Assembly (NCBI GenBank): GCA_040954595.2
Contig: CM082587.2
Coordinates: 9,739,403 to 9,803,402, forward strand
Origin: Balanoglossus misakiensis
Lineage: Eukaryota; Animalia; Hemichordata
Reading direction: 5' to 3'
Length of the DNA stretch: 64,000 nt
The notes beneath the pieces are model-generated. The model searched no databases. It was not told the origin of the DNA and saw only the letters and a list, made by a program, of their open reading frames with translations. Of this stretch, positions 2,901-43,600 are shown piece after piece (positions within the stretch are counted from its first letter, which is position 1; each line of letters begins with the position of its first letter). A program made the translations under genes and the position numbers.

Positions 2901-2943
2901 CACAGCCGTATTCAGCCTGAATTCTAGTTGGAGTAAAGAAATA
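2901..2943 (+). repeat. Left TIR of the RAG1-like transposon (conserved block begins after 18 bp)
   Basis: CACAGCCGT-ATTCAGCCT-GAATTCTAGTTGGAGTAAAGAAATA. Confidence 0.92.
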
Positions 2944-3265
2944 CAAACTCACAAACCTTACCAAATTACATCGATAGAGGGCGATATTCATATGGCAATC
3001 CTGATCTGTGCTGTGGTCACAAATTTAATACAATACACATTTTAAAAGTACAAGTTTTAAAAAAAATGTATGTAGTTTGAAAATTTATATTATTTCACTT
3101 TTAAATTCATAGATTTTTTCAATTAAATTATATTTTTAATTAATTTTTTGGCCACGACCTTAAAAAATCATTGCTCTTGTTTTGTTGGACATACCATGTA
3201 CCATTTGGTGGGATCTGTTCACTGGATATACTAAAAAATATGACAATAGGGGATTGTATATATAT

Positions 3266-3296
<31 letters not shown>

Positions 3297-5393
3297 TAGA
3301 CACATATCTATATATATGTATATATGTAATATTTAGACACATGGGCACACACGCACACACTTATATAAATATATACCGGTATATATGTGTGTTCCGATCC
3401 ATACACTCACACCTCTATGAACTACATCCAAACATCACAAGAAATTATTACTGACAAAACTTGTACTTTTTTAACCATTTATTCTTTTCTTTAGCAAAGT
3501 GCATGCATATCACTTCATCTTAAACATTTAGCTGCTATCTTTGCGAGCCCTTTTCCTTATAGGTGGTTTAGGGTTTCCTGGGTGATTCCTGATATGATGA
3601 TCTTTCACCATGCACTTCAACCTGTCTACGTCATTTGGCATTGAGGCATAACTCCTCTCTGCTGTGTTGAAGTGATGGTGAATGACCTCAATACCTTGCT
3701 CACCTAGAAAACCCAGCCCCATATTTGTCATTTCAATTTGACTGACAACATGACATTCAAGAAGGTGCATCTTTGGAAACACAGATTCTTTAGGGAAATT
3801 TGATCTGTAATATTCCATGAGCCCTCGTATGTTGATACCTAGGAGAAAAAGAGAAAATATAAAATCCTTAGTGAGTGGTAATTTAAGAAATTGCAAGAGG
3901 TTTATCACTTTATCCACTAAACACTAAGGAATCCAAATGTAAAGAGTTACAACTACAACATGAACATACATATAAATGTAAACATCAAAATAAAATAAAA
4001 TACAATAAATATAAAAATCATACACTCAGAGAGAGAACAAAAAAGGTGAACACAAGAAAAAATACAAATACAAAATAAATTATCGTTGATTATCCAAACA
4101 AGAAAATAATACTTATTTTATGCAAACTTCAACATTGAATACATTTACAGCATGCAGCAACCAGGCTTCTAAATCTGCCCGTGGCTTCTCTGGTATAATT
4201 CAAGTATCTACAAACTGCCAAATAGAAAAAAAACACCATAGAACATGGTTAGTTCAAATACATTATAAATAATTGAACAAATGTGATTATCTTGATAAGA
4301 ATAGTCACCAAGCTCAGTTATTTCATCTTGGGTCAACCTCCTTGAAAGAGAATATGTGTTGTGGCATGATGCAAACAGTGTCAGTAATGGTTTGAATTTG
4401 TCCCTTATGGCCTCTGCATCAGTAATCAGTTCTGGTGTCATCTCCTCAGTACACTGTACCACACTATCAACAATGATGTTGATATTCTTGTCCTGAATAT
4501 GAGATGGAAAAGATCTTATGCTTAATAGGTGTACGTGTTTGCATGAATGCATGAATAAGAAAATGTCAGAAACAAATTGAAAATGTATTTGTGAATATCT
4601 ACAACAAAAGCAGAGTAAAACTAAATATTAATTTAACCTTTTCATTTCTAGGATTTGACCTGTATGAAATGAAAATACCAACAGGCAAGCATACAAGCAG
4701 CAGATAACTTACTGCCTTGGGGAAACTTAAAATTTTAAGAAAGCTGCATGCCATTGTTATCTACATAAAAAAATGAACTGGGGTCAAGAACCACAAATCA
4801 TGCCTTATTTTGCAGTTACTCTTATCCTCTGAAGTAAAACAATTTCTTCACTAGATTTAAAACTTGAATATTTGGGAAGCAATACAATATACTAGTATTA
4901 TAGAAACCTTGCAGCATGTGTTGACATGGTTTCCAATGAAAGACTTTCCATGGTAAGCCTGTCTGTACACATGAATTTTATTTAGACTCCTATCAAGTTT
5001 CCTGACTGTATATCCAGCATCCCTTGGTAAGTTTCCTTTCAGGCTTGCTGCATCCTCTCTCTGTGTGGAAACAAAACTGTCAGTGAAACTATTGCAAAGC
5101 TGAAGTATGAAATCAAAAGTAGCATGGTTATCCAAAAGACAGGTGAAAATGAGGTGAAAGACTAGGATTATGTCCAAAATAAATGTTTGTTTCTCATACC
5201 TCAGCACTTGAAATAACTATGGCAACAATTTTCCTGTTATGAGTACACATAAAATTTGGTTTTCTTTTTTCTGGTGTCATATGAAACATTATATTATTCT
5301 GTTTCTATTACAGCAAATAGAAAAAAAATCATTGACATGATCAAAACCTAGCATGAGAAACAAACACTGCAAAGTACTCTAACCCTAACCTTG

Positions 5394-8300
5394 TAGTCCG
5401 GCCGCCAGAGGGGTAAACCTTGTTTTGGCGTCTAAAGTTTTTTTTAAAGCGGATTCTGCTTGTATAGATCACCAAAGTGAAAAAAATTGTTACTGGAGCT
5501 CTGTCAGCATTGAGCAATTTGAATAAATTAGCATAATCAAAATGGCCGCCAACGTATTGCATTTTGGCTGAGAAAGAAGAGTCAAACGAACGTTATACAC
5601 CCTGTAGCTTTGTTTTTATCATTTATTTCACCAAGTTGTTGCTTAAGACAAACTAGAAAATAAATGTTGCCATTTATAATGAGCTAATTTGCATAATTTC
5701 AAGATGGTGGCCATCTGTGAACCTCTGTTTTTGTTGAATAACTTTTACATATGTATTTTGCTACGTGCAGTCATTTTAAAACATTTCTTATCACTGTTTT
5801 ATAATTCTGGCCACCTTAAATAGTTTTTCACTTTGTGCTAGAGGGTAAAATCCCATAATAATTGCATTATGGGTAAAAAGTAGACAATTCACTAGAGTAA
5901 TAGATAGAAGACATTATATGTTTAATGTATTTCATGACTTCCTTTGGTCAAACATTTCTGCTTTGAAGTTGACATATTAAAGTCAATCAACTTTTTTTAC
6001 ATTTAAAAATTTTTTTAGTTACAAAGTATCGGAATGACCGAATATCACTTTAGCTTATGAACTCCCATTTCTTAAACATGGCAAAAACTCGGCCATCTTG
6101 GAATTGTGTCGACCAGATGAGACTTTTATTACTCACCTGGGTAGCAAAAATCTATTTAAAGTCGGGAGAATTGCAAGTACATAAATCTTCTTTCGCAAAA
6201 TTAATGTTGATTATCATACATTTATCATGAGCAGCCAGGTAATCCTTCGCCCTTTCTCAAAGGCAACATAATGCCGTCATATCCAGTCCAATAATCATTA
6301 TCATACGAGGTAAAAATTACCAGCTCCAAGAAATAATTGATAATGGCAGTTGCTATATTTTATCGCCTTGAACTACTTGAAGTGGCCGTACCAGGTGTCC
6401 CGAATTGGACAACGTATCATGCGAGAATGTTACCCCAGTCAAGATTGACCAAAAGGAACAAACTAAAGTGTAATTTACCAAAATGCCAAACTATTATTGT
6501 GAGTCAAATCCAGAAATACTGTCACTTGCCATTTGAGTGACTGATGAGTCATATTTGGAATTACAAAGTCTCTTTAGATACCACTGAATTTCGTAAATTA
6601 TTCTGCGAAAGTCAGAGAATGTCTGCCTCAATTTCGTTTTAAAGGTAATAAGCTGTGTCTAATTTTAAATTCCTCATATTAGTTGCAAACTTTACCGCAT
6701 CTCGGGAGTTTTGTTTATTCATCACAAAACTTGGCAAACAATGACTCTTGAAAAACATACATACACATTGTGAAAACATTTCGAACATTTAAAAAGGGCA
6801 AGGATACACATGGAACATCAATCAACTCATATCGTTTAAAAGCTGAATGTTTGTGCCTGTTCAACCTGCAAGCTGAAACCTTTAAAAATGAACGAGGAGG
6901 AAGTTAAACTATGGTGATAAATCATGGATGTTGAAGGATCGATTGTGCAAGCTTTGCGAAATACCTGTTGATTATAAAAAAAACATTGCTAATTTCTAAC
7001 AGGAGTGCAGATTATTTTGGAACTGTCTTGTCTTTTCCAGCATTTTTTTACTTTTAAGGACAGATAGGCAGCAGTCAACTGAAGGAAAATGTTAGAACGC
7101 TTTAAATGAATGAATTTCCCTTTCTTATCTAAACGATGCCAATTTCCTTTAAAAATACAAACACTGCTCTTTCTCACTACAAAATACGTGTTGGCATCCC
7201 ATTTTAATGTATTATCAAAAATGGAGCCAAGGTATGTGTGAGTCGGGACAATTTCTACTTGATTTTTATAAAGGTCTTCTTGCGCATTCCTTCAGGTTTC
7301 TCAAGTTGTTTCTATAAATGAATTTAAAATAAGAAGCTTAACATCTTCCACACCAGTTCTTTTCGAAAACGCACATCAAAGGGATAGATCGGAAGACTTT
7401 ACAGTTTTATCTAGTGTTTTCAGGATAAAAGTGTGAACAGAGATTTGAATGTTGAAAGATCTCGTTCAGCTGATCAGTACATTATTTCGAGGCGAATCAC
7501 AAATGCGATCTGGGGACCAGTGTTTGTATTTAATTTCAGTGGTTATAGGGTTATAGCTGGTTATGACTACCCGTAGGTCACATATAGTAGGATAGTTCAC
7601 AATTATGAAATCGACGACTTATCTAAGGTGTTACTGGAACATTTACAAGCAATAGTTTTACATCATATTTCGTAGAGATTACATAAACTTGGCTCCATAT
7701 GGATGTATAGAAAGGTAACAGGAAGTTCAGCATTCTTATTATTTCAACATCGGTGTATTTACATTTGGCATCATTGTTGAAAAATATAGCCTGAGTTGTG
7801 TTTAATGACAATATGCTCATGCCTACGACTGCCACCAAAGAAAGCCTGTTTCATCAGTAATGTTAGTCTCTGTTGTAATGGGACAGTTTCCTTCCCATGG
7901 TGTTTATATAGGAATAGGAGGCTGTAGGTGTGTCCTGAATCATAAGAATGTTGCTAACTTTATTCATTATATCCTTGTCTAAAATTTGGCCAATGTTTAT
8001 TTTGTCCATCCCTTGTAAACAAATCTTAAAATCCCGGAAAAAACTCATGTTGACTAATGAGACATTCTGCTCGAACATTTTTAATAGGTGTATCTTTATC
8101 CGAGATACAGATAAAGGATATGTATACGGGTCTTTCAGGATTGCATACACTCATTTGGAAACACACAAATATGATCAGAACAATGTCTAGTACATTTTAA
8201 TGTACATTTCAATGTAGTTTATTGTAGTTTAGAGAATACGTTATAATCTGCGTTTATACAGTTCAACTTATAAAAAACAGTTAAGCTTTAAATAATCTCT

Positions 8301-9147
8301 GATCTACACTGTACTTCTAATTAGGTGTAATAAATGATATTGCCTGATAGTATATCAAGAAAACACTTATTTATGAATTTATGATAAAATGGCCAAAAAT
8401 GAAAGGAATATCAGTATAGTGAAACATTTCCGCAAGTTTTGTGCTATGAAAAATAAAAAATCTAATGTCTCAGTGGAGTACATTTACTTCCATGTGTTCT
8501 ACTGGATGAGATCATGCTTTGTTTATGAAGTTCTAAAGTGAGAAATGCAATGTTTTCATTGTATTTTTCATTTTACTACAGTGACGGCCATATTCCTTTG
8601 CGGCAAAGATTAACATTCATCTGGTTAAAACGTGTATGTAACTCATGTTTAGGGTTTACAATACTTGTATATACGTCATGGAGCGTTAACTTATGCAAAT
8701 TAGTATTTAAATATACTCAATTATGACAACTAACCTGTTTTCGCACTATAAAGGTGATTTCTATATCTCTTACATTGATAATTGAAATCATTTGGCGGCC
8801 ATTTTTTATGCTAATTATCTCAAATTGCTCAACACTGACGGAGCTCCTGTAACCATTTCTTTCACTCTTGTGATCTATGCAAGCAGAACCCGCTTTAAAA
8901 ACTCTGATGACACTAATACAAGGTTCGTCACAAAAAGCGGACTTGGCAGCCGGCCTATATATTGATAATTTGAAATCATTCGGCGGCCATTTTTTTATGC
9001 TAATTATCTCAAATTGCTCAACACTGACGGAGCTCCAGTAACCATTTCTTTCACTCTGGTGATCTATGCAAGCAGAATCCGCTTTAAAAAAAACTTTAGA
9101 CGCCAAAACAAGGTTCGGCAAAAAAAGTGGATTTGGCGGCCGGACTA
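5394..9147. mobile_element. Non-autonomous Academ-like DNA transposon inserted into transposase exon 7
   Basis: Termini TAGTCCGGCCGCCA...TGGCGGCCGGACTA with long imperfect TIRs; 3-bp TSD TTG (5391-5393, 9148-9150); ~190-bp subterminal tandem duplication at 8770-9120. TAG...CTA ends with a 3-bp TSD fit Academ. Confidence 0.8.
6100..8200 (-). pseudogene. Decayed Penelope-like retroelement fragments inside the Academ-like element
   Basis: Broken frames with peptides resembling invertebrate Penelope ORFs (INIGQILD...PTASYSYINTMGRKL, KYTDVEIIRMLNFL); many stops and frameshifts. Confidence 0.5.
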
Positions 9148-12100
9148 TTGGCCTTGGCACTTGCAATTAGCTTTTCCTGCACATCTGATGCTTTTGAAAT
9201 AGCAGCTAATGAAAGGGAATCATCATCGCTGTCGTCATCACTATCATCATCAAGAAGTTGTCTCTGAATGTTATTCTCCATGGCAGCAGCCCTGGCTTCT
9301 TGAGAGTCGGCCTCCCTTTCCAAGACAAGGGCCTCACGAAGCAATGACACATATGCATCAAAACGTGCTGGTTTGAAGACAGGTTCATCAATGTCGTCAT
9401 TTTTTTCCATAGCACAGAATATCTTAAGATCAAGTTCTGCACATGCATTTTCCAGCAACTCAAAAAACCTCTTATATAAGCCAAGGCTTATATGCAGTGC
9501 TGGAATTGCAACCTGGAAGCAAAACAAAATCAATGTAACTGTGAATAAAAAAAAATACTGAGTTAAGTAAACTTTAACAGGCCTATTTGGAATATACTGT
9601 CTGGCTACTTAGTATTCCCTCAACAATAAATGTAATTATTTATAGAGAAGATCATCAGTATACAGTTATGTTTTACATATTTTAGATTTTTTTGAGACAA
9701 ACCCAAGACCTGAAGTAGCATTCACAAAGCCAGGACTCAAACCCACTAAGCTAACTTCCCAAGCTAAAAAAAGACTTCTTCTTTAATTGCAATTTGATCC
9801 TGCATGTCTCCATCACATGTGCATATCATATGGTAAAGTGACAACTGGTAATGCTAGGAGCAAATAAAACTGTTTAACAACCAAGTCAAAATGACAATTA
9901 TTGATTAAACTGCACACCCTGTTTAGAGGAATATCAAACAAAGGCTTGTTGATACAGTTGTTGAACATCAACGCAGTCTTCTTATCACTCCCTGCTGCTA
10001 CATAGGCCTGGTTGTCAGCTTTCAGTTGCTCAAGGGACCGTTGTTTTATTTCTGGTCTGTCTCCTGGTTCACGCTTTGCTTCCTCCTTGGTAATAGTACA
10101 CCAAAGACAGAAATATCTGCCTAAAGACAAATTACCCATGAATTATTGCACATTTTGTACATTTGCTGAAAATAAATTATAATCATTCTTTTACATGGTA
10201 AATTACATATAGTGACTGGCTGACTGATAAACAAAGCTGCTGATAAACACTAGAGCACAATACTATTATCTAATAACTCCATCATTCATGAATGGAAAAC
10301 AAGTGATTAGTAGCTCACAATTGACTTATACCTTATGTGTACTTACCACTTGCACCTGATAACCCATAAATGGTTGTCAGATATTCATAGTCACCAGCAA
10401 GAAAAGGAATAACCTTCTTATCTCTATGGAAGAAAGGTTTGAAAGTTAAAGGCATGGTACATAGCATAAAACATGTTGAAATAACAAATATTCAGTTTGC
10501 CAGCACAGTCACTATGAGTATGGCCAGCACTGCTATTGTTGACAATGGAATTGATTTCAATTGTAAGCGATAACAGTGTTTGTTATACATACACTGGTTG
10601 TGCTGACAGAATCGATATTGTGTGTTTCAACATGGTATAGGGAACAGACAACACAGTGTTAGTTGAAAGAGTCAAGCTAAAAGTATCTGAAACAAATAAA
10701 AGTTACAGCTACATGTACTGAGTGTCAGAAAACCAGCCATTGTAAGAAAAGGTGTGCATCAGTTTGAATAGAGCTGAACAGGTATGTACAATCCTCTACC
10801 ATGGGTAATGCTGCAGAAGAGAAAACTATGACTAGATATTTTAATGCATAATTGAAATATTTGCATCATTTACATGTATATCATGTACTCACCTCCATGT
10901 GCAACTCTCTAATGAGTTGATTTGGTCTAAATTAACCTTGTAGGCAATCTCAAGGTTATGCCTTGTATCCGGTGCAGCAAAAATATTCCACACCACTGTG
11001 TTTTCAATTGAATTAAGGTTGGCAACATTACAAATCTGAAAGACAGATTTCATGCTGCCACCTCCCTTATCGCCCCCAACTTTACACCAGACTTCATCAC
11101 AGGGAATAGTGCTTTCCTGCCAAGTAAGTTTATTTTCTCTGAAATATAAAGTAGATTGATATAATAATATCAATATAATAAATGCATTACAAACATGGTA
11201 GTAAAAAATGTTGAAGAATGAGAATGAAAAGACCACGTGTACAAAATATTGTCTAAAATGTGAAGTGAAAGGTAGGTACCATTAGTCTATTGAAAATGTG
11301 TAAAGTAAGGTCAAAACAAAACATACTATTTATTTTTGACATTATATGATGTCTTTCATTTTTACGTCAATGAAGTTGAATGTTTACTCCAAATTATACT
11401 CCGTACCAGCATTCACAAGAACATTTTAGGGATAACTGAAAGTAAAATCCAAATTTGTTGATTATTCTCAATGTTACCTTTCCAAACACTCAAGCCTAGT
11501 AATGATTGCATCCTTCACATTCTCTATTACTACCAATGGTGCAAGTCTGATTTCTGTGCAGTGTTTGCCATCTGTTCCCCTCACTTTAAATGTGAAGGGA
11601 AGTCTTTCCGCAGAAAGGGGCAGGGATAGCGTTTCAGCAATTTCCCTGTCCCTTGTCTCTCCTTGGACATGTATGTTCCAATTTCGCAACCATCTGAGGA
11701 AAAAAATAGATTATGTTGAAATGCATGTGTACTTACCCATCCCATGACACATTGCCACTATTGACAGGTTTGACTGTACTAGTAAAATATGCTATAAAAA
11801 CGCTGGCATACACACCCACTTAATCCTTACCTCCTCAGTGCTCTCAACTTATTCCATGGTAGTGACAAACTGGTCTTTAGCATTAGACCAGCTCCAGGAG
11901 GAACATTAGGCAAAAGACCAAGGGAATGTAGTTCAGTCTTCCCAAATCTGCCCAGCTCCCGCCTAACCTGTTGTGCTACCGCTTTGCTGTCACCTGACGC
12001 ACCTGACGCACTTTCTCTTGTCTTCTCTACAATGGTTGCTCGATGTGCCTGTGTACGAGTTGATACTCTGGTGGAATCCTTCGCTGCCTTTGGGACATAC

Positions 12101-14069
12101 ATCAGGTGAATAGGCTTATGGGAGAAAAATGACACACGCAAATATTTTATTAACATGGGGACATATGTAATGCAGGTAAATGGCCTTACTAGGAAAAATT
12201 ACACACAAATACATATGTCATGCTTAAACATATCAGATATGTCAACAATTGAACATTGTGACAATATTACAAAACACTATAACTACTTATTCATTCCTAC
12301 TACAGTAATAATAATTATGACATTAATTTCAAATCAACACTGTTTTTTCCTTACCTTTGATCTAGTTTTGAATGTTATCGCCTCTCCCTTTCTAGAGCCA
12401 GGGGTTTGTTCCAGTTTCAGTTTGATTATTTTGGTTGCCACTGTATCGAAACCAGCCATCTTGTCGATTTTTTCAGAACAGTTAGCAATGGTGTCAAGTG
12501 CTTCTTGTGGGGATATAGTACTGGTTGTTTTCACGGTCTCTGGCTGGTGTACCGACCCATTCACATCAATGTCAGTGTCATTGCAATTTACATGTAATTG
12601 CTGTTGCTGTTCAGGGAGCTTGGCTGACGCATAATGATGATCATGGGCAATTGATGTGTAGGGGCAGCTTTCAAAATGGCCTTTCAGATCCCTCAATGGC
12701 AGTTCTCTAGTACATCCCCAATTACTATAATCGCAGTGTATTGTTAGTGAACTTAGGATATTTCCCAACATGACTGGAATCGAAGCAACTAAATTGCTGT
12801 CTATTGTAACCCGACAGACAGGACATGTTGGGGAAACTTTGAACCACTCTGCCAAGCAGGGGGAACAAAATGTGTGGGGGTTAGCACACAGAATTTGGAC
12901 AGGCTCGTCCACAATTTCTTTGCAAATAGGGCAATCGAGTTCTTGGCCAATATATGTGCTGTGAATGAATCGTTGTGGAGACAGTCCCAGTGAACACCTA
13001 AACCTCTTGCCTGCTTTGGTCTTTACAACATTGACGAAATCTATATCAACGGGTGTGTCAGTTTGACTTTGAGTTCCTGAACCCAGCTTCCTATCATCAG
13101 AGTCATGAGGAGTAGACACGATATTTAACTTTTTTTTTCACGTCCTCGTTTCGTCTGTTTTGGTTTCCTTCCGGGTCGAGACCGAAGGCAAACATCACAC
13201 TCACCGTTTCGCGGATGTTTTTTCCACAATGTCACCTTCGTTCTCGGGCTATAGCTAGCTGTACTGGCCTGTGTTACATGTAAACAGTAGTCGACTGTCC
13301 GCTTGCAATTCTTGCAGAAACTATTTGGATGAACTGTCGATTCGTCGTTGTTTACGTCAACATTGAACGTATCGCGCAATTGGGTTTGGAAGCTCTTACA
13401 CGCGTACGAAGTACTGACGATTTTTGTACCACAAATTCTACACAGTGTTGAGATTAGACCCAAATGTGCATCCAAATCTTTCTTGGTGGCCATATTTTGC
13501 TTCAAAGATGATCTGTATTTTGATTTTGGCGCCACAGACACCGGTAACAGGTAGCGTATAGACGCCGTGACCATGGTGACATTGAGTCAATTTACGTCAA
13601 TCACAATCACGAACTCTACAGAAAGTGTAATTACGTAGCCACACGCTAAATTCCGAAGCCACACCAACACTACAAAACGATCGTACATACAGCAAATTAC
13701 CCCAGAAATTTGTTATTTACGTTGTGAAAATTGATTTAATTTTAAATCAAGCTCAAAAAAATACACATCATAATCATGCTCACCTACAGATCGCACGGCT
13801 ACCGTGAAAAAAATCGCCACTAACGCAACCACAAAATCACACTTTGAGGCGATTGCAGTACATCGGGAAGCCAGCAAAATATCAGTGAGGTTGTTCGGAC
13901 ATCTTCGGAAACCAATTATACTTAGCAAATGTCACGATTATGTCCATATTAGGTAGTTACCCCGCCCAGAACTTGCTTCGTCCGATCGGCGGCAATTCTC
14001 AAAAAACATGTGATCGAAATCCCGCCGCGAGTTCTCCCTATACACGAGATCTCGTGCGTTTGACATTGT

Positions 14070-14121
14070 TATTTCTTTACTCCAACTAGAATTCGCCTTA
14101 CGTACGATATTAACAGCCGTG
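14070..14121 (-). repeat. Right TIR of the RAG1-like transposon (conserved block begins after 27 bp)
   Basis: Reverse complement: CACGGCTGT-TAATATCGTACGTAAGGC-GAATTCTAGTTGGAGTAAAGAAATA. Confidence 0.92.
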
Positions 14122-14888
14122 AACCCTCCAAACGCCAAGTCTGTACCTGCTCTGGATGCCGAGATATAGGAAAGTTGGTCAAAGGTCACCTGAGGTCACC
14201 CAAAATTTGGGCAAGAAATTTTGACCCTATACTGGTCCATGTCCCACAAGAACGAAACCTCTAGCCCTATTAGTTAGCCCGGAATTAGATATGCACATAA
14301 TTAATGTGTTAAGCAGGTGTTACAGGTGAGCCCAAAATTTTGCCTTTCATTTTGGCCCCATTGTGCTCACTGACCAATAGACAGTCACTGTACAGGACTA
14401 TTGCACAGACCAGAATTCCACAATAAGATGTGGACATAGCTTAACCATAGAGGTATAAGTAAAGGTATAAATTTAATAAAAAGACTAAAAAATTCATAAA
14501 AAATAAAACATCGATGATATTAACTCAACACTTACAGGTCGATGTGAGGTTGACATATGGTACATGCATACCAATTTTTAAAGCAATCTGACGAGTAGTT
14601 GTTGACTTTCAGAGTTTTGATAAATTTCACATTTTTCCAGCTAATTTGCATATTTTTGGGCCTGGCAACTTTGTTTGGACAAACTCCCATCTACAGCCTA
14701 GCCTGCACCTACACACCAAATATTGAGGTGATACGCGCAGCGGTTTTCAAGTTTTTGATGTGGACGGACATACAGACATACATCCATCCATCCATCCATC
14801 CATCCATACATCCATACATACATACAGACGCAACCGATCCCATAAGGTCCCATGGTATATATGCCTATACCAATGGGACCTAAAAAAA

Positions 14889-16540: not shown

Positions 16541-17645
16541 TTCTACATTTAGTTTTCTAACTCCATATCTGAATAATCACTGTAATTATTTGTATCATTT
16601 TCATATGCATTTGTTATACTCTCTTGTCAATCTTCCTCAGGTAATTGGTATTCCTGTTCTACCTCTTCTATCTCTAGTATGTCAAACGTTTCAAAAGTAT
16701 CCACCATTTCTTCATTCATAATCATTTCTAGAATCGAATCATCTTCACTTACTCTGTCAATATAACTTCTACTGGTGTTTTCACCACTTCTAGTGTTTTC
16801 ACAGTTTGTTATGTATAGTGGTCTTTATGGAGTTTAGAATGTTATTCCTTCCATCCATGGCATTTGCCATAGACCTCAGCAGTCTATTTAAAACCAACAA
16901 ACTATCTCTACTCTTGGAGGAAAACACAAACGACCCCTTTCTCACCATTATGAAAAGCTTCACAAAGACAAAGTATGTTGCAGTTAAAAGACTGAAAATG
17001 ACTATAGAAAAATATGACTTGCATAGACAGACTGATAAATGCCCAATCAGTTACTATGCCCAGACTGGACAAAAGCCTTTCACTGTCACTCTGCACTGAC
17101 AGCCCAGACAAATGCCAGTTCACACACACACCCTGCAAAGACTAGACTAAATATCAGTTCACAAAAACTCTGCACAGTGCAGACTAGACAATTGTCAGTC
17201 AAACTAAAACCACACAGACTACTCCTACACAGACTGGAAAATGCCTGTTCAGTAATACTCAAACAATAACAGTTAATGAAATTTACCTTTTTAATTTTTA
17301 TTGTCAAATAAATACAATATAATATATAAAAGGTAACAACTGAGGAAAGCAAGATTAATAAAGGAAACTCCTGAATGCAAAAAAGTGTGGGAACTGGCCA
17401 CCAACCACACTAAAGGCAGACTCACTAAAAGTAAAACACCGATCGATCAGCACACTGACGCACTTCTGTCTTCGTTGTCTCCTGAAAGACAAAGAAACAA
17501 ACTGTTAGGCGTACGATAATTATTGGTGAAGTTCTCAACAAGAGATTTGGTACGGCTTCCACACACACACGACACTGCTGCAACAGTGCACGCCAAGCAA
17601 GGAATGATGCTGCCCGGGAAACTTTTCCTCTGGCGCGCTTACTTA
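16540..17645. repeat. ~1.1-kb dispersed repeat, copy 1 (copy 2 at ~20650-21645)
   Basis: Near-identical direct copies; the ORF track gives near-identical peptides at 16806 and 20918. Confidence 0.9.
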
Positions 17646-18333
17646 AAGTCCATGTCCTGTCACATTTTGCTCCGTTTTGTTGTCATTACTCATTTGTATC
17701 CGAGTTATCGCTGTTTCTATTATTGTTACAGAGAAATAAAATATTACAATACAAACTAGTATATATATTGGTATTAAATATCAAATATGGATGTAAATAT
17801 ATTGCGCCAATCTTTAAAAAAACGCCCGAAAAGTTGTAGTGTGCAGAAAATCAGCGCGAATTTTCCGGAAATTGCCGAGTACGCGCCGTTTTCACCCCAT
17901 ACACCTGTGACGTCACTAGTGGAACACATAAACAAACATGTCTGCCATTCGTACGGCGCGGTGCCTGCGGTGGTGAACGATTTTGAAAGTGAAACCGATG
18001 ACTGGGGCTGCATGACTTGTGATGCCAGAAGTGACAGCGCAGGTGGTGATATTGACCAACTTGTAGAGGCTATCGTAATGTCTAGCCAATATCATTACAC
18101 ATTTTCTACAACATCGACACGTCACTATGTTCGAAGTGCTAGTGCTGCACAGCTGAGCGATATTCAGTCGCATAAAACAGTCGACACACGCTAAAATTTA
18201 AAATTGTGTGCATATTTAGTTAGAATGGAAATCACTCGGCAAAATGTTGATATTTATACAGCAGCAATTTAGTGAATGTTGGCAATGTGTACTGTATCGT
18301 GTCATCGTGACTTGCCGTGCCGTTTTTGTTTTA

Positions 18334-20649: not shown

Positions 20650-21645
20650 TATAATTCTACATTTAGGTTTCTAACTCCATATCTGAATAATCACTGTAAT
20701 TATTTGTATCATTTTCATATGCATTTGTTGTACTCTCTTGTAAATCTTCCTCAGGTAATTGGTATTCCTGTTCTACCTCTTCTATTTCTAGTATGTCAAA
20801 CGTTTCAAAAGTATCCACCATTTCTTCATTCATAATCATTTCTAGAATTGAATCATCTTCACTTACTCTGTCAATATAACTTCTACTGGTGTTTTTACCA
20901 CTTCTAGTGTTTTCAGTTTGTTATGTATAGTGGTCTTTATGGAGTTTAGAATGTTATTCCTTCCATCCGTGGCATTTGCCATAGACCTCAGCAGTCTATT
21001 TAAAACCAGCAAACTATCTCTACTCTTGGAGGAAAACACAAACGACCCCTTTCTCACCATTATGAAAAGCTTCACAAAGACAAAGTATGTTGCAGTTAAA
21101 AGACTGAAAATGACTATAGAAAAATATGACTTGCATAGACAGACTGATAAATGCCCAATCAGTTACTATGCCCAGACTGGACAAAAGCCTTTCACTGTCA
21201 CTCTGCACAGACAGCCCACACAGACTACTCCTACACAGACTGGAAAATGCCTGTTCAGTAATACTCAAACAATAACAGTTAATGAAATTTACCTTTTTAA
21301 ATTTTATTGTCAAATAAATACAATATAATATATAAAAGGTAACAACTGAGGAAAGCAAGATTAATAAAGGAAACTCCTGAATGCAAAAAAGTGTGGGAAC
21401 TGGCCACCAACCACACAACAGACAGTAAAACACCGATCGATCAGCATAGACGCACTTCTTTCTTCGTTGTCTCCTGAAAGACAAAGAAACAAACTGTAAG
21501 GCGTACGATAATTATTGGTGAAGGTCTCAACAAGAGATTTGAGAAACACTTGCTCCAGCTTCCACACACACACGACACTGCTGCAACAGTGCACGCCAAG
21601 CAAGGAATGATGCTGCCCGGGAAACTTTCCCTCCGGCGCGCTTAC
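20650..21645. repeat. ~1.0-kb dispersed repeat, copy 2
   Basis: Direct repeat of 16540-17645 with an internal ~110-bp indel. Confidence 0.9.
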
Positions 21646-21649
21646 TTCA

Positions 21650-21993
21650 AGGGACAAAGTCTCTCTCACTGCCCTTTTTCCACTAGTTATGTTTGATACA
21701 AGACACTGTTTATGTTAATGTACATGTGGATATATAGTAAATCTACATTCGACCACACACAACTTCCATCCCACTTGTAAGATATGAGAGTAAAAACTCG
21801 CCCAAAATGAATAAATGGTAAAGAACGATTATTCATTTTGGGGAGTTTCTTCACTCTCCTGTCTATAAGAGGGATGGAAGTTGTGTGTGGTTGAACGTTG
21901 ATTCACTATATATCCACATGTAGAATAACAAACGGTGTCTTGTATCAAATATAATTAATGGAAAAAAAGGCAGCTAGAGAGAGACTTTGTCCC
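21650..21993. mobile_element. Kolobok-type TTAA MITE (family also at ~42060-42200, 48725-49065, 57111-57460)
   Basis: TIR AGGGACAAAGTCTCTCTC / GAGAGAGACTTTGTCCCT, internally palindromic, TTAA on the right flank (TTAA on both flanks in the 57111 copy). Confidence 0.75.
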
Positions 21994-30860: not shown

Positions 30861-32760
30861 ATGGTAAATTATTGTAATGTATACAAGTGCTGTAATCGAT
30901 CTGATAGGCAGTCTGATCGAAGTTACTTTAGACTTTCTGCTGTGATAACAAACCAAGGCGAAGTTTGCCAAGATTTGTCAAGTCGACGCCGCCAAAAGTG
31001 GTTGGCAAACATCGACCAAGACTTTGCCAGAAAAAACCTGGCAAACATTCGGGTTTGTTCAGATCCTTTCATTGGAAGTAAGTAAAATTTGACACATGTT
31101 CTTTTCTGGCATTAGCCTGACATGCAAACTGTTTTTCTAGTTGGTCTGCTGAATTTTTTTGTTGTTTTGAAAACAAAAAAGAAATACGCGTCGGCCGGCG
31201 GCAGCAGACGACAGTGTGCGTTGCGTAGCAACACCTACACAACTTTTGATAATAACCTGACTGTTGACCTCGAATGACCTTCTATGCGAATGCCAGGCAT
31301 ACTTAGACTGAACTTTCTGCAGGAAATAGTGGAATACTGGATAGTTTGTGATCAGTGGATATATTTCTGATCCAAATAAAGTAACTATAAATTTGCATAA
31401 AAAAATATTTATGGTCTTCTTTTATTATTGTTTTATTTAAATCTAAAAGTGATCTTGTCATAGATTTCCTTGTCCACAAAAGTGTTACACGTACCACTAA
31501 ACCTTATACCATATCACTACAGGAAAACCAGCAGACCTGTATGATTCCAATAACCCTGACTGGGCACCAACTATAGATATGGGAAATCATAAAGTCCTGT
31601 CAACACCAGTGTCATGCCAAAAAAGATATATAAGACAGCAGGAAAGAGAAGCGAAAAGAAGGGTAGTCGTTAGTGTATCAGCTACAGATGAAGCACCAGC
31701 TGCATGCCAGGATGGTAGTACTGGTAGCAACAGACGAGATATGGGAACACAAACATATATTGATGGAATTCTTTTTGACAGAAGAATTGCAACAGTTGAG
31801 ACAAGAGAAGATGGACTTACAGACTCACATACTTGGTCGGTCCAAGTCATTTTCAGACTATCGTCTCGATGACTTGAGCAATGAAGATGAAAAAGTAAAA
31901 TTTTGACAGGTTTGTCATCCTTTCTGGTGTTCTCCACGTTATATAATTATCTTGAGCCATACCTCCCAAATAAAAAATCAATGACCAGATTTCAAATTTT
32001 ATTTATGGTACTTATGCGTTTACGTCTGAATTTGGCTGAGCAGTTCCTTGGTTATGAGTTTCATGTTTCACAATCGACAATTTCTAGAATTTTTTGTGAT
32101 GTCATTAATGTATTGTATGCCAGGACAAAACATTTTGTTTTCTGGCCTTCACGTGATGTTCTTCAAAAGACTATGCAACTTGAATTTGTCAGATATTTTG
32201 GAAGGAAGATTGCTGTAATTATAGATTGTTTTGAAGTTTTCATTGAGAGGCCATCAAATCTTATGGCCAGAGCCCAGACATGGTCGTCATACAAACATCA
32301 TAATACTGTTAAGTTTTTATTAGGTATAACACCACAAGGTGCAATTTCTTTCATTTCAAAGGCATGGGGTGGGCGGGTCTCAGATAAATTCATTACAGAA
32401 CAATCAGGTTTTTTAAAAATATTTTACCAGGAGATGTTATCTTAGCTGACAGGGGTTTTAATATTCATGATTCACTTGGAAGTATATGTGCATCAGCTAA
32501 AATACCAGCATTCACCAGAGGGAAAAATCAATTATCACCCCTTGAAATAGAAGCAACCCGAAAAATAGCCCACTGCAGAATTCACGTAGAAAGAGTTATT
32601 GGTAGTGTCCGTCAGAAATATACAATTTTAAACAGCACTCTCCCCATTGATTATCTGACGACGAGGGAGGAGCAAAGATTATCAATGATTGACAAAATAT
32701 GTCATGTAAGCTGTACACTTACAAATTTATGTGAGCCCATTGTAAATGTTAAAAAGTAAA
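30861..32760 (+). pseudogene. THAP-domain DDE transposase (ISL2EU), frameshifted
   Basis: THAP MVNYCNVYKCCN...W...RVCSDPF (His replaced by Pro); intron ~31078-31522; [13 protein letters not shown]...[49 protein letters not shown]. Frameshifts near 31850-31905 and ~32415. Confidence 0.88.
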
Positions 32761-33457
32761 ATAGTTCACAAATGTTTCTCAATGTCAGACTTGACCATTA
32801 AATTTTTAAATTCCTTTGCAGTTCTTGTAATTACTCAGCCTAGCCGGCTGTCACAAGACATCGGTATTTCATTGTTATATATATTCCGGAAATATTTGGA
32901 AAGTTCTAGAAGGTCATTCGAATGTCAAGTTCTGGAGTTGTTCTGGAGTCGCGTTGAGCGATTGTACCAGCAGAGTGAATAAAGTTCACTGGTGTTTTCA
33001 CGGTGAAGACTTGCTATTGCGATAGCCTGTGTGTCTCCTTCAGTGTTACAGGGAGGTATGGCTCAATATTTTCTGTACTTTTGTCAACTCTTTTCTCGTT
33101 CTAGTAAATAAATACGCCACGTTGGCTTTTGCACTTTACTTTTCTTGTTTTGTGCACTCCCTCATTCAGGTGTATGGTTGTTACCCTTATTGATCAAACA
33201 TTTTGTTATTCTATGTCCCTTGTGAGAACCTTCCAAAAACATAGATTTTGATAGAATGATTTAGAAAACATCATTATATTGTAGAGAGGGTGTGTGTGTG
33301 AGGGCGTAATAACAACTGTAAGGTCAGGACACAATAATGTTTGATGCCAAATATGTGTTTTATTGCACTTCATGATTCATGATGTGACAATGACAATGTG
33401 ACAACATTTCTGTTGTCAAAGTTTTCCATCATCTTTCCATTACTGTCTATTAAAACA

Positions 33458-34722
33458 TTACTTCCTTCGACGATGAAACTGTGGAAGCTTTCTGCAATCA
33501 GGACAATACAATTTTTGGGTTTTTGGTGCCCTACTTATCTTTAAACATTCAAAATGAAACCACTTTAATTGGCAGTTTTCATTATCACAACATACCATGT
33601 TCCCTGATTCAAATTGCTGACAGTAACAGTACAGGTTATCGTCATTGGAATTCGCACCAATAGTGCTTGTATTTGGATCAATTCTTTTTAGAGTATTGTC
33701 AGTATTCGGTAACTTTGAGTAAAATTTCCCAACTAATTTTGGAAGAATAGCTGTTCTAAATATGTGTTCAGCCTTTTCACATGCAAAAGTCTCTATCAAA
33801 CTGGATAACCTCAACATGGATATTCTTTTCAGTCCAAACCACAAAATAGCCAAAATCATACTGGCAAACTCCCAATTGTGTCTGGACCTGATAGTAATAT
33901 GCATGCTTCTTATCTAATTTGAGAATGCCATCATCCTCTTTTTGCAAACAAAAACCACTACTGATGGCATCAGGTATTTCACTATCTCTTTTACAGTAGG
34001 GACATTTTATTTCAAGGCACCCCACTCCACAACAGTCACACGTGTCAATCCCATCAGGGGAAGCTCCCAAATGTGGCCAATCAGGGTTAATAATCAAACC
34101 ACAATCCTTTACCAAAACATTATCATGTTGCTTTGATATGTCAAATATGAATTTCTCTCTTGCTGTTTTTTCATGCTTGCAACCCCAAGTTGTGGCTTGT
34201 GAAAAAAACTTTATACTTTCTGGATGACAGATGCTCATGATTAAACTATGAGATGGGCTAGCTGGATCAGTATGGCATACTGACTTCATTTTAGATGCAG
34301 TTACTCTGCCTTCTCTGAAATGAAACCACAACTGAGAGTTTGCCTGATCACGTGTATTTCTTTCAACAGCTGCAGACTGTTCACTGATCATTTTTCAGTG
34401 ATGTCAAATTAATAGGAAAGTTATCACTAGAAGACTTCGGTAAGTAATCATCACAATAAGGGGAAGAAGTTGTCAAAATTGCTGCACGTGTGTTGGTACT
34501 TTGGAGTTCTCTGTATAACTCTGCCATATCCAGCTCAGATGCAAGTGGAACAGGGGTTGTATCACTAACACATGCCTGATTTACTGCCTGATTTACTCTA
34601 TCACTGGAACCCTCAAGCGAAGAAGTCAAAAGTTTCTTTTTCGATTTTGCGGACGTAAAGTCTATATCACACACTTCTCTATATTCCACTTTTTGTACTC
34701 CTCTCGGTAGCAGCCAATATCC
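33458..34722 (-). pseudogene. YqaJ/lambda-exonuclease plus C-terminal PHD finger (ISL2EU accessory gene), 5'-truncated and frameshifted
   Basis: TRDQANSQLWF..R.GRVTAS, HLGASPDG, LEIKCP, YYYQVQ.QL; PHD LYCYCQ...MVCCDN..C..KWFHFECL...YCPDC; split over three frames. Confidence 0.88.
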
Positions 34723-34896: not shown

Positions 34897-36360
34897 TCAG
34901 CTATCGTCACTCCACTCCTGAAGAAACCGTCCCTGGATTTCAATATACTCAAGAATTATCGCCCTGTTTCCAATCTTCCATTTCTTTCCAAAGTACTCGA
35001 GAAGATCGTCGCGGCTCAAATCACTGACTACCTCACCAAAAACTCTCTCCAGGTACCATTACAGTCAGCATACAGAAAATACCACAGTACAGAAACTGCA
35101 CTTCTGAAAGTACACAACGACATCTGTTTATCCGTGGACTCTGGCAACTATGTTCTTCTCATCCTCCTTGATCTCTCCGGTGCTTTTGACACAATTGATC
35201 ACAATATACTACTTCATCGACTCTCGCATCTTGGTATCTCCGATGTCGCACTCAAAAGGTTCACTTCATATTTAAAGCAACGGGAACAGTCTGTTAAAAT
35301 CAATGATGTCATCAGTGAACCATCAGAACTCAGCTTCGGCGTCCCTCAGGGCTCAGTTCTCTGGCCTCTCTTGTTTACTATCTACATTGCTCCACTATCA
35401 AATTTGATACACAAGCACAATCTACATTTTCACCAGTACGCAGATGACAACCAGCTTTATCTTTCATTTTCTCATCATGACTCTCCCGCAGCCCTGACCC
35501 TGTCTTCGATTGAAACCTGCATTCTCGACATCAAGGAATGGATGACCCATAATAAACTCCAGCTTAATGTCAGTAAAACCGAAGTCCTTCTGATTCGCTC
35601 CAAGTTTAACACGTCACCAGATCCTATTAACAGTGTCAACATTGGTTCCACTTCTGTCACACCAGTCTCATCTGCTCGCAATATAGGCATGATCTTCGAC
35701 AGTAATCACATGTTCAGTCAGCACATAAAGTACACCTGCAAATCGATCTACAGTCACCTCCGCCGAATTGGATCTATACGACGTTACATCACCAACGAGA
35801 CTTGCCAAACCTTAGTACATGCAACTCTATCTGCCAAACTTAACTACTGTAACTCACTCCTGTATGGTCTCCTAGAAAACACAATCGCCCTACTTCAAAG
35901 AGCTCAGAATACTTCAGCCAGAATAGTCATGCGCACTAGGAAATTCACGCCTATCACTCCAGTTCTTGCCCAGCTCCATTGGTTACCAGTTCGTCTCAGG
36001 ATCGACTACAAAATTTTGTTGATAACTTTTAAAGTTATCCATAACCAGAATCTGTAGCCATACACTCCCACTCGTACACTGCGTTCATCCACCAAGAAAC
36101 TCTTAACATACACAACCTACAAAAACAAGACCTATGGCGGCCGTGCCTTCTCCTATGCAGCCCCTAAACTGTGGAACGCACTACCTCTTGACATCAGGGA
36201 ATCAACAAACCTGGAGACTTTCAAAAGAAAACTGAAAACTCATATGTTCGAAAGAGCATACAGTGTGGTTTAACCATGTGCGTCATTGGGCAAAATTTCT
36301 TGTTTTGGATTTTGGCGCTATATAAACTTTGTGTTGATAGATTGATTGATTGATTGATTG
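34897..36360 (+). mobile_element. 5'-truncated CR1/L2-clade LINE reverse transcriptase
   Basis: NYRPVSNL, QSAYRKYHSTETAL, LDLSGAFDTIDH, GVPQGSVL, YADDNQLY, LHWLPV; (GATT)n 3' tail; probable TSD GAGAATTAA (34888-34896, 36360-36368). Confidence 0.92.
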
Positions 36361-40604: not shown

Positions 40605-43600
40605 AAGATTGGTAATAAAATTTAAAAAAAAATCAATGTGTCATTTCTTGCTATGTTTGTCGATGTTGTAGATAACTGTAAAAAAAAAACCCAACCATAA
40701 TCGTGGAAAACACGACCTAGGTCGCCGAATGTCACTACCGTATGTAAGACGGTAGTGACATTCGGCGACCTAGGTCGTGTTTTCCACGATTATGGTTGGT
40801 TTTTTTTTTTACAGTTATCTACAACATCGACAAACATAGCAAGAAATGACACATTGATTTTTTTTTAAATTTTATTACCAATCTTAACAACAACAACAAC
40901 AACAACAACAACAATAATAACAACAACAACAACAATAACAATAACAAAATTACTGAGTTCCCTGTGTAGACACTAGTAAACTGAAGAATTTTGAATATGT
41001 CATGTTTCTGATCAGGGAGTTTATCTATTGACATCAGCAAGCCACATTGAGCTCTGTCTCTCATTTTTAGCTCTGCTGTCAGCGACAGGAACTTTTCAGA
41101 TAGGTGGACTGTCAATTATCTGGGGCAATCATAGTATTGACTGCTATGTCCCAAGGCTAATGGCATAACCCAACGTAATTTAAAGCACGACTGTGCACTG
41201 TTTATTGTTCACAAATCCCTGTAATGACCGGCCTCACAACAAACCTGGCCCTGTGCACAATGAACCCGGCCCTGCATTGCATTAAACTCAGTCATGAGTA
41301 CCAATCAGGAAGTAAAATATTCACTGAAGTATAATGTTTAATAAGAAGCATAATGTACTTTAAAATCAAAAATACATGAGTAAAAATATTCACTGAAGTA
41401 TAATGTTTAATAAGAAGCATAATGTACTTTAAAATCAAAAATACATGAGTAAAAATGTTCACTGAAGTATAATGTTTGTCAAGATATCTACACCTTGTTA
41501 TATTCTAAAACAACATTTCCATTAGAAATACAATCCACATTTCTTGAAGTAAACATATATGATTCTATACCCATAATTTTACCTATAACATTTATTATAT
41601 TATACAAAATTTAAAATAAAAAATACATGAGTACCAATCAGGAAGTAAAATATTCACTGAAGTATAATGTTTAATAAGAAGCATAATGTACTTTAAAATC
41701 AAAAATACATGAGTAAAAATATTCACTGAAGTATAATGTTTAATAAGAAGCATAATGTACTTTAAAATCAAAAATACATGAGTAAAAATGTTCACTGAAG
41801 TATAATGTTTGTCAAGATATCTACACCTTGTTATATTCTAAAACAACATTTCCATTAGAAATACAATCCACATTTCTTGAAGTAAACATATATGATTCTA
41901 TACCCATAATTTTACCTATTTCATAATATTAAAATATCAAGAATATTTGCATTGTAAAAACGTTTCTGGGAATTAAATAAGGCGAAAACCTTATTTACAG
42001 AATTTTACAACATTTTCTAAATTCAAACAAAACCGTTATACTCGTAAAAGTCGTTTACTCACATGTCAACAAACGGGATGGAAGTTGTTTATGGCTGAAC
42101 GATCATTCAATACATATACACATGTACATTAAGCAAACAGTGTCTAGTATCAAACATAATTAATGGAAGGGGCAGCGAGAGAGAAAGACTTTTTCCTTTT
42201 AAACTAATGAAATGCTTTCAAACATCCTTTTAATTTCCTCTGTGTATAACATTGCCGTACCACGTCTATGCATGTCATTATTTGTATCGTATTGTAACGA
42301 CACCATAAGTTTGCCACTTAAGCCTGCGATTCCTATCGCGCAAGTGCCTAAGAGTGTACCCCTCGTCCCTCTATGGATTTTCTCAACACTGACTTTGCGA
42401 TCATTGTGACATTCCAGAAAAGTAAGCTGTCCTGCATTAGATATGTATAAGACATCTTTAATGGAATTGTTTTGCTGTTTAGCAAGCTGGATTAATTCCC
42501 TAGTTCTGTCATACTGGAATTCTGTTAACTGTGATATTGGTGGTGGACCCGATACTCTATCGTCAAGATTTTCTTTAAGTCGCCTTGCCAGTTTCCAGAA
42601 ATATTCATCCCCAATCGAGGCTTGATTTACATTTGTTGTCAATTTTTCTGTAGTGTTGTAAAGACCCAAATCTGTAAAATTTTCTTTGAAATGCTTTCGC
42701 AATGTGCGGGCAACATCCAACTTAACATCCATGGGTTTTCCATCATTAACTATTTTAGCAAAAGCTGATAAAAACAATGCTAATAATGTTGAATTGAGAT
42801 TAACATTGTGTTGTCTTGTCAGTTGCTTCAATTTTGATAGCAAATTCTCGGATATCTCAAAAGTAATACATTTTGTTTCGACATTCGTGTCATAATCATC
42901 AGAAATATCTGAAAAGCATAATGGCGGTGCCGATTCCACCAGCATTTTATCGTTGTCTTTCTCAGTTACACTTATAGTCTCTGGTGTTGCAATCAAATCT
43001 TGAGCTGCTCGAGGAAACGGTACTCTCTGAATTCTTTGCTGAATGTTTGTCTCAAAGGATCCGTCCACAATGTCATTCAGATTTTCCACGAATTGATTCA
43101 CATAGCTACTGGCACCAACACCATCTGTAAGTGAATGGTGAAACTGAAACGTCACAGCAGCCTTGTACGACTCACGATCGCCAGTGTCATTCTTTGTCCA
43201 CTCTCCTTGTAAGATTGTACAGTTCCACAAAGGGCCTTGGAGGCAGTTGATGGCATTGCTTCCAGATCGAGAAATGGCAGTTCCCACATCGTCGTTCACG
43301 GTTAGACCTGAAACACGAAGATCAACACTTCCGCCGTTTGTCATCTCTGCGAAACACCTGTCAGTTTCTCTGCCGTCTTCATCGTGCAAAACGATAACTC
43401 TTGAACTCAATGCACTATGTTTCTTACGTAGGTTATCAAGTGCCTTGTGAACAATGTCCTTAGTAATTTCAACTTTGCAATTCAATTGCAAGTGTATTAC
43501 AACGGGCCAGAGACGGTATTGTGAAAAGACGTCGTACATACGTTCGGGCGCGTTCATTTTCCGGAAATATGGCGCCAGTGCTGTGCGATCATTTGTGCCC

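Follow-up and report, generated by a model that had tools for sequence, protein, structure and literature searches.

Structure of the element and its insertion site

The window analysed here is a stretch of 64,000 nucleotides from the hemichordate Balanoglossus misakiensis (contig CM082587.2, positions 9,739,403 to 9,803,402). It contains, on the minus strand, a DNA element of 11,221 bp (2901-14121) with CAC..GTG ends, a length that includes a nested insertion of 3.75 kb. There is good reason to regard it as a full-length, RING-bearing Chapaev transposon that duplicated 4 bp of a satellite monomer on insertion and has been broken twice, and whose near-identical unbroken form in public contigs likely encodes a working transposase. 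The original prediction had described a reconstructable transposase at 3528..13493; both ends of the element fall outside these coordinates and had gone unnoticed.

The element interrupts the last monomer of an array of 239-bp satellite repeats (1731-2901), which resumes at 14122, and it is flanked by two copies of AACC (2897-2900 and 14122-14125). If it is removed along with 4 bp, a satellite sequence present four times in the window is restored, while removal with 3, 5 or 6 bp gives a sequence found zero times. One contig of run X1, described below, terminates precisely at 14121. Relatives have CAC..GTG ends as well: of eight distinct insertions, whose ends were set by comparing copies or from their inverted termini, six are flanked by an exact 4-bp duplication, two by none, and zero by a 5-bp duplication. 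The 4-bp duplication is a family trait.

Gene model of the transposase

On the minus strand, ten exons add up to 3180 nt and 1059 amino acids with a single terminal stop, and all nine introns are GT-AG. Two repairs are needed for this frame: a one-base break at 13130-13138 has to be bridged, and 5394-9147 dropped together with one TTG copy. Splicing and translation reproduce in full the ten phase-compatible exons of the original prediction, with their 3180 nt and about 1059 residues.

Exon 1 (12355-13493) opens with the ATG and holds the Chapa/NZD finger (about 13188-13442), a basic patch, the RING (12814-12933) and a subsequent zinc finger, as well as the frame break in the T9 run at 13130-13138. 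Exon 2 (11831-12114) holds the segment that stands in place of the RAG1 nonamer-binding domain (NBD), weak on its own, and the start of the dimerisation domain. The first catalytic Asp, D570 (GGDKGG, codon 11069-11071), lies in exon 4 (10893-11138; DUF1280, E 8e-11) and the second, D640 (AGDYE, codon 10390-10392), in exon 5 (10347-10423). They are followed by the CxxC pair C659/C662 in exon 6 (9918-10120), by the ALH motif and a long helical arm in exon 7 (9148-9512, with its last base at 5390, beyond the insertion), and by RQAYHG in exon 8 (4908-5060). H981-x4-H986, the likely catalytic E1007 (codon 3687-3689), a basic tail and the stop are found in exon 10 (3528-3838). Exons 3 (11478-11693) and 9 (4309-4492) are placed by the spliced model and the junction alignments.

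Phase is poor proof of such a model, because many other splice choices for exons 7 and 8 keep the frame open too; homology, and not phase alone, fixes it. Protein P0001 of Ptychodera flava, with 64% identity across 911 aa, aligns to junctions 1-7 with no gap, and the junction at the insertion site lies within this gap-free alignment (IASAKAKREDAAS versus RAQAKSKRESAAS). P0001 stops short of junctions 8-9, which are gap-free against protein P0003, itself gapped at junction 7. Both proteins are database gene models, not transcripts.

Protein domains and catalytic residues

In exon 1, Pfam recognised RAG1_imp_bd (E 6.7e-14), zf-RING_2 (E 7.7e-9) and, weakly, Sina_ZnF (E 0.0095). In the 1059-aa model the Chapa finger spans C18-C102 and the RING 188-227, KPIHL lies at 380, a gap of 69 residues separates D570 from D640, and C659/C662, H729, H981/H986 and E1003/E1007 follow. 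In the alignment of 141 relatives D570, D640, C659, C662, H729, H981, H986, E1003 and E1007 are all nearly invariant: among non-gap rows, Asp is found at 570 in 115 of 115 and at 640 in 130 of 132, and the two Cys are conserved in 132 of 133 (C659) and 131 of 132 (C662). The motifs of the original prediction (Chapa, RING, KPIHL, both Asp, CxxC, ALH, HxxxxH and EQGIE) are where it had placed them; what has to be revised is the catalytic Glu, which is likely E1007, the second Glu of EQGIE, since this residue sits on RAG1 E962 in the profile alignment. The last 70 residues hold a single Cys and the basic tail, with no CCGHC motif.

The family is large, with 2454 representative relatives at E<=1e-3; relatives in viral contigs were not found (0 of 52 candidates). 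DUF1280 was detected in all eight relatives scanned by Pfam, and no RAG1-core family was among the listed matches. A FastTree phylogeny of cores took in 79 of 161 core sequences, all from unnamed or 'uncharacterized' relatives, with no RAG1, RAG1L or Repbase sequences; it groups the model with P0001, P0015, P0010, P0003 and P0005 (support 0.999), all of them acorn worm proteins by their source names.

The helical arm between ALH and RQAYH (window 9148-9512, minus strand; model 734-876) is 143 aa long with an acidic tip. In the 82 of 165 proteins in which the arm was measured, its length is 42-153 aa (median 126), and its part 430-540 matches unrelated coiled coils in structure comparison. The acidic tip was ruled out as a family trait, only 2 of the 82 proteins reaching 9 acidic residues in 12. 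A weak PHD match (Pfam E 0.0014) was seen in the corresponding arm of Caenorhabditis nigoni P0009; the PHD pattern was found in the arm of 0 of 82 proteins, a set that excludes P0009.

Predicted fold

The fold was predicted by AlphaFold on the relative P0005, which is 38% identical to the window model (predicted local distance difference test, pLDDT, 92.9). Foldseek gave 49 matches to this prediction at E<=1e-3, every listed one being RAG1, BbeRAG1L or HzTransib, at 10-15% identity. By VIA, P0005 scored Z 24.6 (root-mean-square deviation, rmsd, 8.6; 509 residues aligned, RAG1 409-1028) and Z 24.3 (rmsd 4.3, 454 aligned) against RAG1, Z 21.8 (rmsd 3.9, 455 aligned) against BbeRAG1L, Z 21.5 (rmsd 3.7, 403 aligned) against HzTransib, and Z 10.8 against the P-element transposase. 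The PDB entries compared were 6dbx, 6oep, 3gnb, 21wb and 6b40 for RAG1 and RAG1L, and 6pqx for HzTransib. An RNase H core with a zinc-binding insertion is present in the P0005 model.

At the sequence level, the family profile built from 141 sequences is collinear with mouse RAG1 95-491 (E 1.4e-14), its KTGGxP landing on KGGRP, and it matches the RAG1 NZD structure 21wb (E 3.5e-10). Weak, non-significant core segments of the same profile fall on the second Asp, the CxxC, the HxxxxH and E962 of RAG1. Exon 4 alone and a 6-sequence profile retrieved no RAG1 or Transib among the sequences of solved structures. The listed structural matches include no Chapaev, CACTA or hAT structure or transposase, and RAG1 may lead for want of a closer solved relative. 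Together, the profile alignment, Foldseek and VIA support on close relatives the RAG1 fold and domain order that had been claimed, and the protein is predicted to adopt a RAG1/Transib fold from the nonamer-binding region through the C-terminal domain.

That the segment of exon 2 is a nonamer-binding-like domain is weakly supported. Folded alone, from the window's own sequence, exon 2 reached pLDDT 93.4, and among 48,161 chains the RAG1 NBD 3gnb came top (Z 3.8, rmsd 3.3, 46 residues aligned), level with unrelated chains. Foldseek of exon 2 alone gave no match at E<=1e-3, the RAG1 NBD appearing at E 4.2, and for RAG1 chains with the NBD the alignment to the P0005 model starts at its residue 61-68. 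In the window copy, KTRSKP takes the place of the KGGRP of RAG1; the GRPR/K motif is absent, and the family consensus is KTGGxP. What holds of the earlier claim is thus a basic segment in the position of the NBD, covered by the whole-chain alignments, with a sequence that departs from KGGRP and a match that is weak on its own. We found no NBD assigned to Chapaev in the literature searched, though figures, supplements and Repbase Reports beyond it may already show one, and the word nonamer is absent from the available text of PMC4411706. Transib is already known to have a GRPR/K NBD and asymmetric ends (as described in PMC10462144), so that finding both in Chapaev would extend, and not overturn, the picture.

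Two lesions and an unbroken form in public contigs

The window copy carries two lesions. At 13130-13138 (minus strand) a homopolymer run is one base short, with a frameshift at codon 119, and at 5394-9147 a non-autonomous DNA transposon of 3754 bp is nested. Runs X1, X2 and X3 come from one sample, likely of the same species as the window. Contigs of X1 and X2 have one additional T at 13129, which undoes the first lesion, and they join 5390 directly to 9148, a skip of 3757 nt that corresponds to the insertion and one copy of its duplication; in X3, next to none of the query words from the element matched. Each of the two repairs proposed in the original prediction therefore occurs as natural sequence, which bears out the proposal of a young family.

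The X1 form differs from the window by 22 substitutions in 6867 covered nt (0.32%), and all its exons are covered, with no stop and no frameshift. Changes are rarer in exons (Fisher p 0.031); of the five exonic ones, four are silent and one is a missense change within the linker (H130N), an excess of silent changes with P 0.009-0.024 against a neutral silent fraction of 0.22-0.28. The depth of X1 is 228-246 over the element, compared with 78-85 and 126-163 for unique-looking flank contigs, which suggests a low-copy family of about 1.5-3 copies by a depth ratio that is not a true copy number. Three haploid copies, of which the window's one is damaged, would be one reading that fits this depth. 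A working copy free of both breaks likely still exists in this animal, to judge from the contigs. The window copy itself is dead as a gene; its ends look intact, and a sister copy could mobilise it in trans.

Asymmetric ends

At the left end, on the 3' side of the gene (2901-2943), the terminal CACAGCCGT is followed by a 9-bp spacer and a 25-bp block (2919-2943). At the right end, on the 5' side (14070-14121), CACGGCTGT, read inward, is followed by an 18-bp spacer and an identical 25-bp block (14070-14094). Past the terminal 9-mer, the block thus spans positions 19-43 of one end and 28-52 of the opposite end, an offset of 9 bp between the element ends (0 of 200 shuffles reach the score).

Both ends could be called in four related families (7 of 80 loci). 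In two of these the internal repeat is offset by 11 bp, the 12/23 difference (0-12 of 200 shuffles for the L076 group, 0 of 200 for L077); these two share a motif and are not independent. End asymmetry as a general Chapaev trait was rejected, L064 scoring best at an offset of +3 and L035 having no internal repeat offset. Two observations count against a 12/23-like reading: the long spacer lies at the 5' end of the gene here and at the 3' end in L076 and L077, and the unrelated nested element is also offset, by 10 bp. The heptamer and nonamer of the recombination signal sequence did not match the element ends (2-3 mismatches at best). Bipartite ends with a 9-bp offset were not found described for Chapaev in the literature searched, beyond which lie Repbase Reports, figures and supplements that may already show them; the spacers of the algal AanRAGL are given as 4/13 bp, likewise a 9-bp difference (PMC9435367).

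A stronger proposal, which we regard as doubtful, is that a RAG2-free transposase survives intact here, its RAG1 layout complete, and that Chapaev pairs short- and long-spacer ends via a true nonamer-binding domain. If true, the split between Chapaev and Transib/RAG would have come after both a 12/23-like rule and the complete NZD-RING-NBD-core chain, and one full-length ancestor, as put forward in PMC4411706, would be favoured over the separate capture of the N-terminal finger argued in 10.64898/2026.01.24.700457. The element would then make both ideas testable in a dish.

Two young, intron-poor Chapaev families (L064/L065/L067 and L076-L080) came up among the relatives, with copies 97-99% identical, 4.4-4.9 kb long and with full ends. 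They share one set of long contigs and are candidates for intact transposases.

Classification and alternative explanations

Inverted CAC..GTG ends and a 3-4-bp duplication are given as hallmarks of Chapaev (PMC4079192), and the CMC/CMCT clade is described as sharing C(2)C and H(3-4)H motifs (PMC12730594). Kapitonov and Koonin (2015, PMC4411706) described two Chapaev subgroups in which a RING comes after Chapa, as it does in RAG1, and inferred a common full-length ancestor; a 2026 preprint modelled Chapa domains and, in its available text, argues for separate incorporation (10.64898/2026.01.24.700457). The Chapa-RING-C2H2-core order has been published before (PMC4411706) and is hence less surprising: classification and domain order are known, and what is added is a new family, 64% identical to the nearest database protein. 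With the RING-bearing Chapaev subgroups it shares CAC..GTG ends, a 4-bp duplication, Chapa, RING and core, and the C(2)C, LH, H(4)H and D-D-E residues, whereas its nine introns, its coding-intact form in public contigs and its bipartite ends offset by 9 bp are points of difference.

With RAG1 and RAG1L the family shares, as judged on close relatives, a collinear series of NZD/Chapa, RING, NBD-like, dimerisation, RNase H, zinc and C-terminal domains. It differs from RAG1L/ProtoRAG by a core identity to RAG1 of 10-15%, or 12-15% where P0005 was aligned by structure, where RAG1L proteins exceed 30% over about 600 aa according to PMC4411706, by the lack of RAG2L, by a 4-bp rather than 5-bp duplication, by the absence of a heptamer/nonamer match and by a tail without the CCGHC motif, reported as a RAG1L feature (PMC10462144). 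The long helical arm further distinguishes this protein from RAG1. As for RAG2L, no kelch or PHD family was detected among the 17 other open reading frames (ORFs) of the element that were scanned, some short ones lying outside the scan, and only 627 bp separate the transposase stop from the left end. Transib (HzTransib, 6pqx) has in common with the element a single gene, the core fold and CAC termini. In contrast, Transib is without Chapa and RING, its canonical duplication is 5 bp, and HzTransib aligns only from model residue 125, that is, without the NBD-like part. The ends, the duplication, the DUF1280 core, the lack of RAG2L and CCGHC and the low structural identity all agree with the original assignment to Chapaev rather than to RAG1L/ProtoRAG.

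Several points weigh against the reading as a Chapaev of RAG1-like fold with an unbroken sister form. The base that follows AACC is C, so that this site can formally be read as a 5-bp duplication, AACCC, next to a left end minus its first C; here the relatives settle the matter. The fold was predicted on a relative and not on the joined window protein, and a 36-sequence core profile without the N-terminal fingers does not reach RAG1 (best E 0.091). The short homopolymer run may be a real allele or an assembly error, the selection signal depends on five changes, and the X1 comparison leaves out the left end (2901-3399). The sample of X1-X3 is possibly the window's own source, flanking contigs having 0-1 differences, and is hence not independent. 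The search for intact sister copies succeeded in so far as both lesions are absent from X1 and X2 contigs, while no other copy was found elsewhere in the window and the two unbroken alleles sit on separate contigs, which overlap by 2 bases within intron 2; such contigs collapse or drop rare variants, so that the two alleles may lie on different molecules.

These separate contigs would also fit a family that is already dead, the unbroken contigs being a majority mosaic of two or three damaged copies, or the intact frame being silent or without a working end. The low depth ratio points the same way, as do the segments that the listed X1 pieces leave uncovered (3943-4019, 13506-13526 and the left end) and the loss of the family motif KTGGxP in both the window copy (KTRSKP) and P0001. 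However, the fully covered X1 exons contain no stop or frameshift, four of their five differences are silent, the duplication is perfect and the divergence is only 0.32%, and we consider a dead family unlikely. The low copy number, the silent-biased differences and the nine introns might also suggest a domesticated host gene under purifying selection, of which the window copy would be a stray duplicate. A contig of X1 stops exactly at the right terminus of the element, however, both ends, the duplication and all catalytic residues are kept, and one acorn worm species harbours several families 35-64% alike, as transposon families do; domestication therefore seems to us highly improbable. The structural matches raise the question of a true RAG1L/ProtoRAG or Transib that lost RAG2L and would be directly related to the V(D)J recombinase: RAG1 comes slightly above HzTransib among the best matches, the sequence of the N-terminal half is similar to that of RAG1 (E 1.4e-14), the CAC ends are asymmetrically spaced, and at the single site the duplication can be read as 5 bp, Transib duplications varying in length according to 10.64898/2026.08.26.747230. 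With a core identity so far below the RAG1L values of PMC4411706, a DUF1280 core, neither a CCGHC tail nor a RAG2L-like ORF, 4-bp duplications in relatives, and a structural lead of RAG1 that may only reflect the lack of anything closer among solved structures, we find this descent barely credible.

Proposed mechanism and significance

For this Chapaev element, cut-and-paste transposition by a single-gene, RAG2-free transposase of predicted RAG1 fold is the best reading. HzTransib and RAG1 act as dimers, and by analogy the spliced 1059-aa protein, putatively expressed and still active, would need no RAG2 and would probably act as a dimer. The terminal CAC motifs would be held in the active sites of the transposase, and its NBD-like helices would contact the internal 25-bp block. 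D570, D640 and E1007 would nick the DNA and the element would be excised, with hairpins presumably forming on the flanks, as in Transib and RAG. Joining of the ends 4 bp apart would give the 4-bp duplication. The Chapa and RING fingers are probably regulatory, as they are in RAG1.

Chapaev transposases are the only ones outside RAG1L reported with the N-terminal finger of RAG1, and a 2026 preprint on the NZD notes that this domain still awaits experimental validation in RAG1L or Chapaev systems. A transposition assay for Chapaev was not found in the openly readable literature, where the matches were titled for other elements; Chapaev elements may reportedly have been among the many DNA transposons surveyed in human cells in 2024. 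With a natural, coding-intact copy whose ends are defined, one could test directly how a RAG1-shaped enzyme works without RAG2, and the same copy could show the roles of the Chapa and RING fingers, the reason for 4-bp versus 5-bp duplications, and the need for unequal spacing.

Nested element and neighbouring features

The nested element at 5394-9147 has TAG..CTA inverted ends within inverted repeats of about 140 bp, a 3-bp TTG duplication and a 189-bp internal duplication at its right end. X1 pieces differ from it at 0-2 positions and have about twice the depth of the host element, so that it appears to be young too. It shares the 3-bp duplication and long inverted repeats with AcademX-type elements (as described in PMC10045372), a likeness known from the ends alone, as it contains no transposase ORF. 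Inside it, a degenerate stretch (6989-7291, minus strand) resembles by eye the tail of a LINE reverse transcriptase, with no Pfam match. Academ ends presumably begin with TAG, and by these ends only the nested element is Academ-like.

Other mobile elements are found in the rest of the window. At 31501-34722, a frameshifted DDE_Tnp_4 transposase (plus strand) faces a YqaJ exonuclease ORF and a Cys-rich ORF (minus strand) by Pfam, a layout that we take to be of ISL2EU/Harbinger type, and a LINE reverse-transcriptase fragment (RVT_1) follows at 34897-36057 (plus strand). A THAP ORF and a 658-aa open frame without Pfam match face a P2RX7_C-like ORF at 59150-63642, and may form a fairly intact two-gene transposon. 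A single-exon ORF of 507 aa (42199-43722, minus strand) has a weak Condensation match, and a RING-filamin-NHL ORF (46301-47710, minus strand) is TRIM-NHL-like, without an obvious B-box. Exons at 54129-57790 (plus strand), which served as a depth reference, resemble a WD-repeat host gene, presumably WDR6-like, the two ORFs scanned having no Pfam match. Finally, a block of about 1 kb is repeated at 16794-17839 and 20852-21714, with near-identical ORF translations in both places.

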